Assembly: GCF_055900595.2 (NCBI RefSeq)
Contig: NZ_CM148325.1
Reading direction: 5' to 3' (one strand)
Length of the DNA: 64,000 bases
Shown: positions 17,626-25,842 of the stretch, in pieces
How positions within the stretch are numbered: the first letter of the stretch is position 1
How the letters are laid out: each line of letters starts with the position of its first letter
Position numbers and translations under genes: made by a program
The notes under the pieces: generated by a model
The model's input: the letters and a program-made list of their open reading frames with translations, nothing else
What the model was told of the DNA's origin: nothing
Databases searched by the model: none

Positions 17626-20262
17626 TTAACGACATTCAGCTGATAGCTGGGTTAATAACTGCTGCTGACTCTCTGGTGGCAGTTGATAATTGGCGACACA
17701 GTGAGCATTTTCCTCTTCTCCCCATTTCACCTGAACTTTTCCCGCTAAAGGCATCCCGCTGAGATAAACCTGACCATTATCCGCAACAATGCCGCTACTC
17801 TGGCTACTCTCTGATGTGACCATCGCCCCAAACGGCAGCGGCTTATTATTATGGGTTAGCGTCATGAGCAGTTTTATCCCAACACGCGCTTTAAACTCTG
17901 CTCGCACAATTGCCCCACGGGTGGGAACAACGTTAGCGACCGCGTTATCTAAATCGACGTTATCAGCCAGGGTATTGGTATCCAGCGCCACTCTATTTTC
18001 CCGATATTCTGTGGCATAAGGCAGCACGGCATAGCCGCGCCAGTCGGTACGCACCCCCGTCTGGTTTTCAACTTTTGCATCTTTTGCGCCGGGTGCTTTA
18101 ACAAGCACCACCGTATCGTTTAACGGCTGCCCCAGCGTTACGCCATTGGCATGAGCCAATACCCCACCGCTGATTCCGTAATAGAGCTGCTTAATATCAT
18201 CGCTATGGCTGTAACCAATGTTGGCATTGCCGTAGCCACCGCGATAATTCAGCGCGGCGTAGCCTGTACTTCCGCTATTACCATCGCCTCCCCCGGCATA
18301 GCCGGTTTGCACGCTATAGCTGAGGTTATTGTCTTCCAGCAACGTACCGTATACGCCCGCAAGGTTGGTCATCCGACCGTTGAGATCGTGTGACATGCTG
18401 TAGCTGGCACTGGCATGTCGCCACTGAGATTTACTGTCAGAACGCAGCCAGTGGCTGAAAGGAATATTGACGTTAAGAGCCAACATCTGATCCCGTCCTT
18501 TTTGCCACGCGTTTTTCGTCAGGCTATAGCTGAGCGTCCAGTTGATATCTTCGAAAGCAGTATTTAATCCAGCCTGGAATTGCTCATCGACATTACTCGT
18601 TCCCCAATAAGTTTGATGGCTACCACTCAAATACAGTGTTGATGTGCGCCCGAGTTGCTGAGTAACAGTGAGCTGTAATTTCCCGCGTTTGTTATAAGCG
18701 AGATTGTAATAGTCGGTAAATTTCGGCTTAACCTGAATAACACCATCCTGTGTTTCGATGTTGTAGCCATTCATTCGGCTGTATGTTGTATCAGCGAAAT
18801 TAAAATACCCGCTGGTCGAGTAACGGTAACCCACTAACTGAAAATTCGTACCTGACTCATTGAGCGATTTGTTATAGAGAAAACGCACCGATTGCCCGTC
18901 ATGCTGACTGTCATCAGGAAGTGTGGAATTAGCCTGCGTCATATCCACGGACAGAGCGCCCAGTGCCCCCATGTTTTTCCCGATACCGAAATTAAAAGCG
19001 CGATAACGATCCGCCAGTTGCGTTCCACCATATATTGTCCAGCCAGCCGGAAGGCCGTGGAGTAATGTACTCTGGAAAAAACGGGGTTTATCCTGTTGCG
19101 CATTTCCACTACGGTATTCTCCTGCCGTAATGGAATAACGAGTATGCCCTTCACGTTGCAAAAGCGGGACTGACGAATAGGGTACGGTAAAGATCTGCGT
19201 GCTACCGTCAGCCTCTTTAATCGTTACCTGCAAGTCACCACTATTACCTGCGGCATAGATATCGTTGATGGTAAAAGGCCCCGGTGGCACCGTACTATTA
19301 TAAATGTCATACCCATTTTGTTTAATAGTGACCTGTGCAGTACCACGCGCAATACCGTGGATCACCGGGGCAAATCCTCTTTGGCTATCGGGTAACATAT
19401 TGTCATCTGAGGCCAATTGTGCGCCGCGAAAGTTAATACCATCGAAAATATCGCCCTGAGTATAACCATCACCCAGCGTCAGCCGGGAACGTAACGGAAT
19501 TATGTCTCGCTCAAGCCAGGTATTGATATGCTGCCATTTATTTTTGCTACCTGATGAACTGTCGCTACTGTTATAACTCCAGGTGGTATTGTCGCGTAAA
19601 CGCCACGCACCAATATTTAACCCACTCTGTAGGTTTAAATATGCATAATGGCTGTTACCACCAATCCGATTCTGTACACTATTTCCGCTGAAATTATAAT
19701 TGAGCAATCCGGCATTAATACCGGGGTCCCATAACTCTGGAGGAATATAACCACGCGCGCGATTACTCATAAATGCCTGAGGGATCGTCAGATTGAGTCG
19801 CTGCTGACCCACATCCAGTTGCGCAGTAGCGTCCTGGATCATTGAGGTTAATGGCACGCAGGCATCATCCGCCAGCAGATTCATACCGGAGACAGAAGCC
19901 GTATTCAGCCCCATACTGGCAAGTTGCGCGCGTGTCAGGCAGGGAACAATCCCTTGTTCGCTGTCGCCCGTATTAAATGTGACATCACGCGTTGCCATAT
20001 AACCATTATTCAAATAGATATCAACACGATACGTCCCTGGCGGTAATTCTTGCCCATTTTCAAAACGCGATAAATCAGCCACAGCCTGGGGATCATCCGC
20101 TAAAAAACGCGGGTTAAAATAGAGTTCGGCAGATGACAAAGGTGCCTGTGTGGCAAAAACACAGGCAACAGAGAGCCGAACAAAAAAACCAGCCAGACGA
20201 GGCTTACGAATATGCAAGCTTTGTGTGTTTCGCTGGTAAAGTCTTAAATTCAGATATGACAT
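17626..20262 (-). CDS. fimD: Type 1 fimbrial outer membrane usher
   Basis: 878-aa ORF, size and position characteristic of the chaperone-usher pathway usher. Confidence 0.9.
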   Translation of the reverse strand: MSYLNLRLYQRNTQSLHIRKPRLAGFFVRLSVACVFATQAPLSSAELYFNPRFLADDPQAVADLSRFENGQELPPGTYRVDIYLNNGYMATRDVTFNTGDSEQGIVPCLTRAQLASMGLNTASVSGMNLLADDACVPLTSMIQDATAQLDVGQQRLNLTIPQAFMSNRARGYIPPELWDPGINAGLLNYNFSGNSVQNRIGGNSHYAYLNLQSGLNIGAWRLRDNTTWSYNSSDSSSGSKNKWQHINTWLERDIIPLRSRLTLGDGYTQGDIFDGINFRGAQLASDDNMLPDSQRGFAPVIHGIARGTAQVTIKQNGYDIYNSTVPPGPFTINDIYAAGNSGDLQVTIKEADGSTQIFTVPYSSVPLLQREGHTRYSITAGEYRSGNAQQDKPRFFQSTLLHGLPAGWTIYGGTQLADRYRAFNFGIGKNMGALGALSVDMTQANSTLPDDSQHDGQSVRFLYNKSLNESGTNFQLVGYRYSTSGYFNFADTTYSRMNGYNIETQDGVIQVKPKFTDYYNLAYNKRGKLQLTVTQQLGRTSTLYLSGSHQTYWGTSNVDEQFQAGLNTAFEDINWTLSYSLTKNAWQKGRDQMLALNVNIPFSHWLRSDSKSQWRHASASYSMSHDLNGRMTNLAGVYGTLLEDNNLSYSVQTGYAGGGDGNSGSTGYAALNYRGGYGNANIGYSHSDDIKQLYYGISGGVLAHANGVTLGQPLNDTVVLVKAPGAKDAKVENQTGVRTDWRGYAVLPYATEYRENRVALDTNTLADNVDLDNAVANVVPTRGAIVRAEFKARVGIKLLMTLTHNNKPLPFGAMVTSESSQSSGIVADNGQVYLSGMPLAGKVQVKWGEEENAHCVANYQLPPESQQQLLTQLSAECR

Positions 20263-20328: not shown

Positions 20329-21054
20329 TTATTCCATTACGCCCGTCATTTTTGGGGTAAGTGCGCCATAATCATTTATTGTTCGGTAAGTAATATTGCT
20401 TCCTGCATCAGAAGGCAATTTAACCGTGCTTTCGCCCATTGGAGGCACCAAGGCATTTTCAAGAACCCGAGTTCCGGCATTCAACTCTGTTACCGTCAGG
20501 TAATAGGGTGTCGGGTTAATCAGCGTCAGAGAATTCGCGCTACGACGAAATCTTAACTTTTCTGCGGCCTGATCGGGTGGCAACGCTAATTTAGCCGGGC
20601 GATAGTACAATTTAATGCGGCTGATAATTGCGAGCTGTAGCGTATTCTCAGTCAATTTTGATTTATCCATTGACGGAATCGCTTTAACGTTCATCCAGAA
20701 TAAACTTTCCCGATCCTGTGGCAATTGGTTATTTGTGGCATCAAGAATACGCAAGGTATTCTCTTTTTTCCCCTTCATCGCAAACAGAGGTGGTGTCACG
20801 ATAAAACGACCATCCTTTACACCATCGGCATTTTCTACCCATGATTGAATTAAATAGGTGCTATTTTCATCATTATTTGTCACGGCAAGTTGTACTTGTT
20901 TTTGCCCTGCCGGATAAATAACGCGAGTCGCACCTAAGGCCACTCCTGCTTCCGCGCGTCCGGCAGCCATCATTGCCATGATCATCAGGATACCTGCCAG
21001 CAAGCAGAATGTTATTTCCTGCAATTTCCTTACATTGACGTTTTTATTACTCAC
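20329..21054 (-). CDS. fimC: Type 1 fimbrial periplasmic chaperone (PapD-like)
   Basis: 241-aa ORF with signal peptide; conserved position. Confidence 0.9.
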   Translation of the reverse strand: MSNKNVNVRKLQEITFCLLAGILMIMAMMAAGRAEAGVALGATRVIYPAGQKQVQLAVTNNDENSTYLIQSWVENADGVKDGRFIVTPPLFAMKGKKENTLRILDATNNQLPQDRESLFWMNVKAIPSMDKSKLTENTLQLAIISRIKLYYRPAKLALPPDQAAEKLRFRRSANSLTLINPTPYYLTVTELNAGTRVLENALVPPMGESTVKLPSDAGSNITYRTINDYGALTPKMTGVME

Positions 21055-21090: not shown

Positions 21091-21630
21091 TTACTGATAG
21101 GTTAAAGAGAACCAGGCCTGAGCATTGGCGATGCCGCCAGTAACCCGACGCCCGGTAGCACGATATTTGGCGATGAAATGTAACGACGTAGAGCCTGAGT
21201 AAAGCCGTTTCCAGTTTGCTGGAGGACGATTAATCGGTACAAGGTTTCCTTCATCATCAAACAACGCTACGCCAATATTGGTGGCAATCCCTGGCCCCTC
21301 TCCCACGGAAAGCACATCCGGATTTTTACCATCCGCGACACCGTGAAACGCCACACCCACACGTTCACTCACCACCGTGCTACATTCCCGTAAATGAATA
21401 ACAAAAGGCACCGGTGCGCTATCTTCCCCAACCGCATGAAACCGGTTACTGCTGATTTGCCCCATATTGACCGTCATTTGTTTATCACCAGCTTCAATCC
21501 GGCAAGCTTCTGCAATAATGACGCCCTGAAATTGCATATTTCCGCCGGGCAACGTGGTGTTCCATTTATTTCCGGCCAGAGCAAACATTGGCAGCAACGA
21601 CGCTAATAGAAATAATCTCTTCCTTTTCAT
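21091..21630 (-). CDS. fimI: Type 1 fimbrial subunit FimI
   Basis: ORF 21091-21762; start placed at the Met of [19 protein letters not shown] (179 aa) by recollection of K-12 FimI. Confidence 0.8.
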
Positions 21631-21694
21631 CGTTATTTTTATCGCACAAGGGTGGGCATCCCTGCCCATAATGACGTCCCTGAACCTGGGTAGG

Positions 21695-22243
21695 TTATTG
21701 ATACTGAACCTTGAAGGTCGCATCCGCATTAGCAGCACCTGGGGTTGCGGCACCGGTTGCAAAGTAACGCGCCTGGAACGGAATGGTGTTAGTACCGTTA
21801 TTCAGGGTTGTTTCTGCACTAAATGTCGCACCGTCCAGCGCCAGCGCAGCACCGGTTCTGTCCAGAATTTGCACACCAACATTTGTTGCGCTACCTGCAG
21901 CAGAACTCTGCAGAGCCAGAACGTTGGTATGAGTCGCATCAATCGCCGTACCTAAAAAGGCAACAGCGGCTTTTGATGCAACATTGGTATCGCAATCATT
22001 CAGCTGAATGTTAAAACCGACAGCAGAACTGGTTGCTCCGTCCTGTGCCAGCGATGCGGTACGAACCTGTCCTAACTGAACGGTTTGATCAACAGAGCCT
22101 GCATCAACTGCGCAAGCGGCGTTAACAACTTCCCCTTTAAAGTGAACGGTCCCACCATTAACCGTCGTGGCAGCGGCCAGAGCCGCTGTAGAACTGAGGG
22201 ACAGAGCCGACAGAACAACGATTGCCAGAGTTTTAATTTTCAT
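21695..22243 (-). CDS. fimA: Type 1 fimbrial major subunit
   Basis: ORF 21695-22393; start placed at [23 protein letters not shown] (182 aa), the FimA signal peptide; C-terminal ...[10 protein letters not shown] pilin motif. Confidence 0.9.
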
Positions 22244-22361
22244 GCTGCTTTCCTTTAAAAAAACTGTTTCTAAATCGACATGGGCAGTCGTTCTGTACAC
22301 TTTGTTTTGAAACGAATTGGACTGCCAACACTGCGCAGTTCTTCCCCAAAAGATGAAACAT

Positions 22362-22675
22362 TTGGGGCCATTTTGACTCATAGAGGAAAGCATTACGCAC
22401 GAACTTTCTTAGTTTATTATTTGGATTTATATTCTATTAATACATTCTTTTATAGATTTTTATATTGAGCGCGGTGGTTTTTGGAGAGGTGAATGAGGAA
22501 GTTGCTTCGAGACACAGAAACGTTAACTTTACCTATAGCGGAGGTGATGTGAAATTAATTCATAAGAGAAACAATTTACATATCAAACAGTTAGTTGCTT
22601 TATATCGTTTTTTTATATTTTTATGCTTGAGAACAAATACAAAACTTTTTTATGATATGGACAGTTTGGCCCCAA
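22362..22675. promoter_or_regulatory. fimS: fimS invertible phase-variation switch (314 bp) bounded by 9-bp inverted repeats TTGGGGCCA; carries the fimA promoter
   Basis: TTGGGGCCA at 22362-22370 and its reverse complement TGGCCCCAA at 22667-22675 are exactly 314 bp apart (outer edges) between fimE and fimA; sigma70-like TTGAGA-18bp-TATGAT at 22627-22656 lies inside the element. Confidence 0.85.
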
Positions 22676-22722
22676 TTGTCTTATATTTCTTTATCTTTTC
22701 ATATTATTATCAATAAGTTACA

Positions 22723-23319
22723 TCAGGCATCTTCTCTTTTTAATTTTTCGTTTATGAGATTATTTCTTTCCCATAATCCGGCAAAACGTGCAGCATTACT
22801 GGCGGTATAACGCACAGTATGGCGAATATTTCGATGCCCGAGATAATCCTGAATTAAACGGGTATCTGCACCACGCTCCGCCAGTTCATAACCGCAAGCA
22901 TGCCTTAACATATGAGGATGAGTCTGCGTCACGGTTCCAGCTTCAATACCGGCATCGCGAATAATGCGATAGGCCTGCTGGCGAGAAAGTCGACTCCCGC
23001 GGCGAGAAATAAATATGGCGTCGGTCTGGTCAGCGCCTTTCCAGTTAGTACGTTCCTGGGTCCAGCGCTCCACAGCTTCACGCTCATCAAAACGTAACGG
23101 GTGAACGGTAGAAAATCCGTTCTTCAGTCGGCGGATATTTATTCGACCTTCGTTAAGGTCAAGATCCTGATAATGCAGATCAAGCAGTTCACTAATACGC
23201 ATCCCATGCCGATATGCCAACAAAATTAGGCAATAATCTCTGGCTCCCGTTGCCCCGTAACAAACCGCCTGCATCATGTCCTGAACTTCTTTACCGGTAA
23301 GATAACGACGTTTACTCAC
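22723..23319 (-). CDS. fimE: Tyrosine site-specific recombinase (fim switch ON-to-OFF)
   Basis: 198-aa ORF with integrase-family catalytic residues (HxxR...Y: HMLRHACGYELAERGADTRLIQDYLGHRNIRHTVRYT). Confidence 0.9.
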   Translation of the reverse strand: MSKRRYLTGKEVQDMMQAVCYGATGARDYCLILLAYRHGMRISELLDLHYQDLDLNEGRINIRRLKNGFSTVHPLRFDEREAVERWTQERTNWKGADQTDAIFISRRGSRLSRQQAYRIIRDAGIEAGTVTQTHPHMLRHACGYELAERGADTRLIQDYLGHRNIRHTVRYTASNAARFAGLWERNNLINEKLKREDA

Positions 23320-23796: not shown

Positions 23797-24399
23797 CTAT
23801 AAAACAGCGTGATGCTGTCGTCCTCTGGCTCTATCCCAGATGCCGTAAAAACGCCCTGCATTGCTGGCGGTATACCAGACAGTATGACGAATATTGCGAT
23901 GTCCAAGATAATCCTGGATAAGTCGTGTATCTATTCCCATATTCGCCAAAGCAAAACCACACGAATGGCGTAACATATGCGGATGAATCTCCAGTGATAA
24001 CCCAGCATTACCACCAGAAGTCGAGATAATATGGTAAAACTGTTGCCGAGAAAGCGGGTTCCCCTTACGTGATAAAAATACCCACTCGCTCTCAGCATGC
24101 GGATAAGAAGTACGTATACTCAACCAGTTTTTTAAAGCCTGAACTTCTTTGTTCAATAGCGGGTGCGTTGTTGAAAAGCCTTTTTTTAATCGATGGATAT
24201 ATATACACTTTGCCTTAAGATCAATATCCGAAATCCTCAATCGACAAATTTCACTCGCCCGGAAACCATGAATAAAACAAAGCAAAGTCAGACAATAATT
24301 ACGTGCTGCATGAGGCCCGGTATTTGCTGCTTTAAGGAGTGACTCGATTTCACTATGGGTCAGGAAGTTCCTTTTTTTGTTATCAGCCTTATTCTTCAT
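23797..24399 (-). CDS. fimB: Tyrosine site-specific recombinase (fim switch, bidirectional)
   Basis: 200-aa paralogue of fimE (HMLRHSCGFALANMGIDTRLIQDYLGHRNIRHTVWYT). Confidence 0.9.
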   Translation of the reverse strand: MKNKADNKKRNFLTHSEIESLLKAANTGPHAARNYCLTLLCFIHGFRASEICRLRISDIDLKAKCIYIHRLKKGFSTTHPLLNKEVQALKNWLSIRTSYPHAESEWVFLSRKGNPLSRQQFYHIISTSGGNAGLSLEIHPHMLRHSCGFALANMGIDTRLIQDYLGHRNIRHTVWYTASNAGRFYGIWDRARGRQHHAVL

Positions 24400-25412
24400 C
24401 GTTTTCCCTTATAATTACAGACGCGCACTAGCTGTGCTGGGTTAGCAATAATCCAACATTTTAATCCTGATTATGTTTATAAAAGCGAACGTTTGCTTAA
24501 TAACTAACGTAAGTGGACCAGTTCTTCTGAGTGAACTTAAATGGAGTAGCGATAGTTACTTATAATAACTTTGCCATACAAACGCCATGCTCTTGCATGC
24601 TATGTACCTTTATATATTTATCAATGTGATACGAATCTAATAATAACCCTCATCATTAATGCAACTAATCTTATCTATATATCATGTGATATGTTCTGTA
24701 ACAAGTAAAATCAACATAAAAAATTCAGCAAAATTTAATATTCGTTCAACTAGCCGTCTCACATATGACATTATTAGTCAACTGCATTTGCCACAAAATG
24801 GCTATTTCATGGAACGCAGTAATTTCTTAGCGTCTATTATCATGCTAATTCTTAGGTCCCTAGCGATTATTCCTGTCTGGTTCGTCAACTCACGCCATGA
24901 GATTGTTATATTCCTTTTTATCATGGAGATATGGGGGAAAGCAGGCGACGCTTTTTCATCTACATTCATTGGTAAATATGGCTTTGGTCACTACGTCTTA
25001 AACCTTCTTCAATCACAGCTATTCGCCGGGCGCTACGGCAAACAAACTAAGTGAAGCATCATCCTGAAAACACCATCATCAACAAGCCTCTCCAGATCGA
25101 CTTCAGAAGTGACCAGTTACAAGCCACAAACCTGGAAACATATTTCATGATGAGAATTATGCTCAGCCTGATGGCGGGTAAACACTTATTTTCACCAAGC
25201 TCACTGAGTTAGCTTGCAAAGCTTTCCTTGTTTAGATTCTAAATAAATTATCTATAAAACAGATAGTTAAAAGAAAATCTTTAGTTTTTGAAGACCACCG
25301 CAAGTGTTCGTCTGGCTTCACATGGCATCTTCCTCTTAGAAAAAGATCGACATATTTTGTGACACGAATTGCAAATCTGGTTTTGTTGTATGGATTGCGT
25401 GATTTTTGATCT

Positions 25413-25433
25413 GGTATAACAGGTATAAAGGTG
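25413..25433. promoter_or_regulatory. NanR operator-like GGTATA repeat in the long fimB-nanC intergenic region
   Basis: GGTATAACAGGTATAAAGGTG matches the repeated GGTATA hexamer recognised by the sialic-acid repressor NanR; ~420 bp upstream of nanC. Confidence 0.6.
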
Positions 25434-25842
25434 CACCACGATAGTCAATGAGACTGGGCATCTCGAAATCTATGGCAAACATCACTTCAGTTCTTTCACA
25501 TCGGGTGATGAAAATGCACTTCAGTCTGAAAGGAATATGAAAATGAGATCAACAGACACTCTATTTTATGACTCTGGGTAAAATGGATTGAGTAAGTGAT
25601 ATCGCTTACGAACATTCAAATCAATCAAACATCAGAAGAGATTTTATACTCAGGTATTTAATCTGGATCTCTGTTTATTTAAATAATGTGGAAAGAGATT
25701 TTTCACAGGAGACATTATACAAAAAATATAAAATACAGCTATCGGTTGCCAAAGACACTATAAGCCTGGCAAAAAATATTACACAACATAAATGCTAATT
25801 GTTTATGCGGGCTTTGTATTGCTTTCTGTATCCTACAAATGA

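Follow-up and report, generated by a model that had tools for sequence, protein, structure and literature searches.

The window, by which we mean the whole stretch of 64,000 nucleotides analysed here, carries the Escherichia coli type 1 fimbrial (fim) locus at 15.6-24.4 kb, entirely on the minus strand. On that strand, the open reading frames and the annotation of E. coli LR-58-1 give the order fimB-fimE-IR-fimS-IR-fimA-fimICDFGH, and the gene coordinates agree with the RefSeq annotation of LR-58-1 (Table 1). The two recombinases are full length, FimB differing from its K-12 counterpart at one residue and FimE at five. All catalytic Arg-His-Arg-Tyr residues listed for these proteins (PMC9820224) were found, namely R47/H141/R144/Y176 in FimB and R41/H136/R139/Y171 in FimE. 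FimA comprises 182 amino acids starting with MKIKTLA, the listed open reading frame taking a longer upstream start, and differs from K-12 FimA at four residues. Its ATG is separated from the nearer repeat by 118 bp. An earlier note on this DNA had placed fimA on the minus strand at lower coordinates than the switch, which is confirmed. The MG1655 record annotates a small RNA, FimR2 (b4838), directly downstream of fimA; the counterpart in the window is the fimA-fimI spacer at 21631-21694.

Table 1. Features of the fim locus in the window, in order of position, with nucleotide identity to K-12 where given.
Feature	Position	Strand	Identity to K-12	Description
fimH	15648-~16550	-		ORF; name from LR-58-1 annotation at matching coordinates
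fimF, fimG	between fimD and fimH	-		ORFs; names from LR-58-1 annotation
fimD	17626-20262	-		ORF; name from LR-58-1 annotation at matching coordinates
fimC	20329-21054	-		ORF; name from LR-58-1 annotation at matching coordinates
fimI	21091-21630	-		ORF; name from LR-58-1 annotation at matching coordinates
fimA	21695-22243	-	96.5%	Major type 1 fimbrial subunit; LR-58-1 annotation at same coordinates
fimS invertible element	22362-22675		87.3%	314 bp including repeats, between fimE and fimA; 40/314 substitutions, no indel
fimA-proximal 9-bp inverted repeat (IRR)	22362-22370			TTGGGGCCA on + strand
Promoter-distal part of fimS	22394-22475			Lrp/Fis-binding region in K-12; most diverged stretch of the allele
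IHF-II consensus site	22581-22593	+		TATCAAACAGTTA; inside fimS, upstream of promoter; predicted from sequence
Putative fimA promoter hexamers	22627-22656	+		-35 TTGAGA 22627-22632, 18-bp spacer, -10 TATGAT 22651-22656; directed toward fimE
fimE-proximal 9-bp inverted repeat (IRL)	22667-22675			TGGCCCCAA on + strand
IHF-I consensus site	22708-22720	+		TATCAATAAGTTA; outside fimS, between fimE and repeat; predicted from sequence
fimE-to-repeat spacer			81%	
fimE	22723-23319	-	96.3%	198-aa ORF; tyrosine recombinase; annotated fimE in LR-58-1
fimB	23797-24399	-	97.8%	200-aa ORF; tyrosine recombinase; same-coordinate LR-58-1 gene annotated fimB

The repeat sequence TTGGGGCCA and the definition of fimS have been published (PMC9820224), and the element is also described in PMC4374849. 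The window sequence agrees with this definition in its length of ~314 bp, its TTGGGGCCA repeats, its place in the fimE-fimA interval and its position upstream of fimAICDFGH. The repeats, TTGGGGCCA and TGGCCCCAA, are perfect over 9 bp and enclose exactly 314 bp. Two predicted IHF sites, TATCAATAAGTTA (IHF-I) and TATCAAACAGTTA (IHF-II), fit the consensus WATCAANNNNTTR; the former carries the same bases as K-12 at the homologous position and the latter is likewise identical in K-12. Published work places IHF-1 beside IRL and shows that IHF-2 boosts the fimA promoter (PMC9993118).

FimB flips fimS both ways and FimE chiefly in the ON-to-OFF direction, both acting at half-sites that overlap the repeats; inversion requires IHF, and Lrp, Fis and H-NS bias its direction (PMC9993118, PMC9820224, PMC9096935, PMC6458436). 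It joins or unjoins the fim operon and its only promoter, and likewise fimE and a Rho-dependent terminator within fimS (same sources). Applied to the window, this scheme would have the two 9-bp repeats recombined by FimB and FimE with the aid of IHF, Lrp, Fis and H-NS, and the single promoter of the fim operon would sit inside fimS about 10 bp from one repeat. With the promoter end abutting and facing fimE, fimAICDFGH would be promoterless and the cell non-fimbriate, while an OFF transcript would presumably head for the 3' end of fimE. Once FimB had inverted the element, the promoter would lie beside fimA, and the ON transcript would then cross the repeat and the 118-bp leader into fimA. The majority orientation would usually be OFF because FimE drives the ON-to-OFF reaction strongly. 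The K-12 switch of fimS, FimB and FimE was reportedly described by Abraham et al. in 1985 and Klemm in 1986. The hyxS/FimX and ipuS/IpuA-IpuB systems of E. coli likewise use tyrosine recombinases to flip a short segment that carries a promoter (PMC6458436); these, however, have other loci, repeats and target genes and are absent at this position of the window.

A TTGAGA-18 bp-TATGAT promoter on the plus strand, about 10 bp from the fimE-proximal repeat of a 314-bp element, had been proposed in the earlier note, whose coordinates for it (22627-22656) proved exact; TATGAT ends 10 bp from the repeat. Its description as the only good promoter holds in part. With 10 of 12 consensus positions it is the best site wholly within fimS, but it is not the sole one. 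Two weaker 9/12 sites lie inside the element, one on the plus strand at 22437-22466 and TTCACA-16-TAAAGT at 22553-22526 on the minus strand, which faces fimA and has a poor -10 hexamer (TAAAGC in K-12). A second 10/12 site, at 22658-22687 (+), spans the fimE-proximal repeat. Across 22200-22800, which is AT-rich, we counted four promoter-like sites against 1.9 +/- 1.4 in shuffled sequences, and the consensus match of TTGAGA/TATGAT alone has no statistical significance. We identify the promoter because of its homology to K-12 and its conservation, not because of its consensus score: the layout of TTGAGA, 18-bp spacer, TATGAT and 10 bp to the repeat is common to K-12, E275a and E69, and it recurs as TTGCAA-18-TATGAT in Citrobacter amalonaticus, whose switch has an overall identity of only 62%. 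The text of the literature searched yielded no statement of the mapped fimA -35/-10 hexamers or transcription start. The fimA promoter was reportedly mapped to TTGAGA/TATGAT by Olsen and Klemm in 1994. Together with the conserved layout and the fimS end published as promoter-distal (see below), that work supports TTGAGA/TATGAT as the likely fimA promoter. Transcription would then be expected to start at ~22663-22665, ~7 nt downstream of TATGAT.

The window switch aligns base for base with that of MG1655 (NC_000913.3) in the fimE-to-fimA direction with zero indels, and it is an exact inversion relative to that of strain E275a, which aligns only once the interior of its switch has been reverse-complemented against the flanking DNA. 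The orientation was calibrated via three published, experimentally defined assays that we ran in silico on MG1655 and E275a. The Inv-1/Inv-2 assay with SnaBI, for which the reported fragments are 440+161 bp in OFF and 403+198 bp in ON (PMC4374849), gave 442+162 bp for MG1655 (OFF) and 405+198 bp for E275a (ON). The OL20/OL4 assay with BstUI has reported fragments of 539+187 bp in OFF and 433+293 bp in ON (PMC9993118), and yielded 540+188 bp for MG1655 (OFF) and 293+434 bp for E275a (ON). The third assay utilises a 135-bp probe for the 'phase OFF right end / promoter-distal end', the promoter being at the opposite end of fimS (PMC9993118); its product was exact on MG1655 and impossible on E275a. 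In the arrangement shared by MG1655 and the window, the promoter-distal end is the one beside fimA, and the promoter lies at the end that abuts fimE; this arrangement is therefore phase OFF. We regard it as very nearly certain that 22362-22675 is fimS in the OFF orientation, and the evidence supports a fimA promoter at the fimE-abutting end of the element rather than at the TTTTGACTCATAGAGG end. The OFF call of the earlier note is thus upheld, the window being collinear with a reference that reproduces three published OFF assays and inverted relative to an ON strain; the mapped promoter was not found on the minus strand near 22370-22420, a placement that would have argued for the opposite call.

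What the earlier note had implied to be noteworthy is, by contrast, the default of E. coli assemblies. We searched complete E. coli genomes with an 851-bp query across both junctions in the orientation of the window, counting a genome as collinear where at least 80% of the query matched in one place; the ON query was the same 851 bp with 22362-22675 reverse-complemented in place. Of 4725 genomes having the fim locus, 4456 were collinear with the OFF query and 249 with the ON query, and both orientations are thus seen for the common allele. These counts correspond to ~94% OFF and ~5% (5.3%) ON, with ~20 genomes disrupted. In published work the UTI89 reference fimS is OFF (PMC6458436), as were 129 of 129 Shigella genomes examined (PMC4374849). 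The fim switch found here is a textbook system in its commonest assembled state and as such is already known.

Among K-12-derived assemblies, fimS is ON in DH1Ec095, DH1Ec104, DH1Ec169, ER1821R and the 'K-12 MG1655' record CP010444, which differ in this from NC_000913.3 (OFF). Since derivatives of K-12 can be assembled ON, the assembled state is a snapshot of a culture and not a property of the strain. It is probable that the sequenced culture contained both ON and OFF cells and that the assembler returned the majority OFF consensus, the window then recording the state of a population. In line with this reading, fimS is phase-variable by design and E. coli sequencing libraries hold both orientations (PMC6458436), both recombinase genes are intact in the window, and the occurrence of K-12 derivatives among the 5.3% of complete genomes that are ON indicates that the state varies within a lineage. 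A mixed culture, which is what one would normally expect at a phase-variable locus, is compatible with the OFF assignment, our best explanation, and makes it more precise. The window allele probably still inverts, and the culture would have been mostly rather than uniformly OFF.

The window and LR-58-1 share an identical 851-bp switch region (100%). The two sequences are near-identical over ~19.0-23.2 kb, including 1537 bp of perfect identity at 21686-23222 around fimS, whereas on either side of this tract they show 1-7% differences per 500 bp (72 in 25000-25499, for instance). With flanks of 98.7% identity and a different content past 28.8 kb, the window is not the LR-58-1 sequence. As judged from these alignments, the fim locus tract has the mosaic pattern expected from recombination. 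Further along the window, an island at 28800-53700, beside nanC/nanM, encodes three DEAD/DEAH-box helicases, a class I SAM-dependent DNA methyltransferase, a UvrD-helicase-domain protein and an STY4851/ECs_5259 family protein, and is probably a defence island. It is present at a coverage of at least 80% in 512 of 5426 genomes. Its best match is in EC42405 (98.9%), which also carries the rare fimS allele described below.

Comparing the window switch with that of K-12 reveals the same locus, gene order, 314-bp length, 9-bp repeats, IHF-I and IHF-II sites, hexamers, spacing and, relative to MG1655, orientation. The two differ, however, by 40 substitutions in fimS (87.3% identity), against an identity of 96-98% for fimB, fimE and fimA; the substitutions are densest in the promoter-distal half, the SnaBI site is lost and the BstUI site has moved. 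A sliding difference count delimits a block of excess divergence of ~450 bp (~22309-22760, ~13% from K-12), which extends past fimS by ~50 bp toward fimA and ~85 bp toward fimE. Differences from K-12 number 3-12 per 50 bp in the block and mostly 0-3 (maximum 4) in fimB, fimE and intergenic DNA; the flanks of the block differ from K-12 by 2-4%. The substitutions spare the repeats, both IHF sites and the promoter hexamers, and the bases just inside both repeats, like the first 7 bp outside each, equal K-12. They cluster in the promoter-distal half, and the promoter spacer is changed at four positions.

This allele is rare. When the window switch was used as a query, two complete E. coli genomes were identical to it, 11 were 95-99% and one was 90-95% identical; a gap followed below 90%, and 4630 genomes then matched at 80-90%, none of them above 88.9%. 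Switches with 90% identity or more to that of the window thus occur in 14 of 4647 complete genomes. The K-12 switch, used in the same way, found 4283 genomes with at least 95% identity and only 29 at 80-90%. MG1655 and E275a, which carry ordinary alleles, differ from each other at 12 positions, whereas members of the rare class differ from K-12 at 35-40 positions and from each other at 0-10. The 13 carrier genomes were recovered from human, cattle, pig, poultry and food sources in eight countries, and several FimA alleles are represented among them.

The text and legends of PMC9993118 have Lrp and Fis binding to the promoter-distal part of the K-12 switch. In the window, 21 differences from K-12 fall in two 50-column alignment segments over 22408-22507. 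From the text of the same paper we picked GAATATTAAGCCAAC as a candidate Fis site of K-12. It fits the Fis consensus and lies 50 bp from the promoter-distal repeat; the window reads GAATATAAATCCAAA at 22425-22439 (-), the terminal C being lost among three changes.

Scans of metagenomes for ON-state copies of the allele, with a 49-mer and then a 33-mer, gave zero hits. A 21-mer that all alleles share, but in which other Escherichia species may differ, was used to scan GTDB species representatives and gave no donor; its matches were a misbinned MAG contig, Citrobacter amalonaticus and E. coli E69 only. The switch of C. amalonaticus S646 (positions 1929-2242 of the locus compared) shares with that of the window its 314-bp length, its 9-bp repeats and 21 bp at the promoter end, with TTGCAA-18-TATGAT at 10 bp from the repeat; genes resembling fimB and fimE precede it, and it is assembled OFF. 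Overall, however, it is only 62% identical to the window switch, and we rejected this species as the donor. E. coli E69 (CP089930.1; positions 513-827 of the locus compared) carries a third fimS allele of 315 bp, with identities of 90.8% to the K-12 switch and 87.6% to that of the window; it is assembled ON and has some promoter-spacer variant bases in common with the window. A targeted literature search found no description of this allele class. Sequence heterogeneity of the fim switch in uropathogenic strains was reportedly noted by Leathart and Gally in 1998.

Tentatively, and with more doubt than confidence, we propose that the allele represents a rare switch cassette in which the recombination core has been kept while the Lrp/Fis region and the outer DNA on the fimE side have been rewritten. 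Such a cassette may have been imported from an unsampled Escherichia lineage and may alter switching rates or responses to the environment. If this were true, the OFF state of each of the 14 known copies would be in keeping with a stronger OFF bias.

An improbable reading is that the 40 substitutions in fimS, or the flanking changes, have disabled recombination or cofactor sites and thereby lock the switch genetically in the OFF state. None of the 14 copies of the rare allele (13 of 13 complete genomes and the window) is ON, the promoter-distal region bound by Lrp and Fis in K-12 is heavily substituted, the candidate Fis site appears to have lost its terminal C, and identity to K-12 drops to 81% in the DNA outside the fimE-proximal repeat. 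However, at the background ON rate of 5.3%, zero ON in 14 is expected ~47% of the time (P ~0.47) and is hence uninformative. Moreover, fimS retains its full 314 bp free of indels, its two repeats are perfect, the bases just inside them and the first 7 bp outside each equal K-12, as do both IHF consensus sites, and FimB and FimE are intact with their catalytic tetrads. The persistence of the allele with 0-10 internal differences across many hosts and countries suggests that it is maintained.

Locked-OFF switches are known from O157:H7, which has a 16-bp deletion in fimS, from Shigella flexneri, with a nonsense mutation in fimB, and from ST131, with an insertion sequence in fimB. The window resembles all three in being assembled OFF but has no fimS deletion, and its fimB and fimE are intact. 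O157:H7 genomes also gave a shorter match to the census query (836 vs 851 bp), unlike the window. A lock caused by a deletion in fimS or by an inactivated fimB or fimE was rejected, the 314-bp switch being complete and both genes intact. Given the lack of a deletion, the intact FimB and FimE and IHF sites identical to those of K-12, there is no sign of a lock of the O157:H7, Shigella or ST131 type.

Finally, it is exceedingly improbable that the orientation call is wrong and the window ON, with the true fimA promoter elsewhere, such as at TTCACA-16-TAAAGT (22553-22526, minus strand): this weak promoter-like site does face fimA and the hexamer assignment has no direct printed source in the text of the literature searched, but the -10 hexamer of the site is poor and reads TAAAGC in K-12, three published assays set the MG1655-type arrangement, with which the window is collinear, as OFF, and PMC9993118 names the fimA-adjacent end of that arrangement 'promoter-distal'.

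The phase-OFF, diverged switch of the window has practical consequences for orientation assays. The SnaBI site of K-12 sits in the promoter spacer and is absent from the window allele, and the moved BstUI site gives OL20/OL4 fragments of 463+263 bp in OFF and predicted fragments of 369+357 bp in ON. The allele thereby defeats two standard restriction assays of orientation, the predicted BstUI ON doublet of 369+357 bp being unresolvable. In silico, HinfI with Inv-1/Inv-2 still discriminates the two states of the window allele, with 423+179 bp in OFF and 140+462 bp in ON.

On its own, the orientation call is of little consequence, an assembly giving the majority state of one culture. RefSeq records show no feature under fimS, which annotation pipelines leave unmarked, and as a result the promoter of this major adhesin operon seems in most genomes to face the wrong direction, which should be borne in mind when fim expression is deduced from an assembly. 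The rare diverged allele is a modest lead on how cofactor sites tune phase variation. If its rewritten Lrp/Fis region does alter switching, the allele would constitute a natural experiment on the cofactor sites that set the bias of phase variation.
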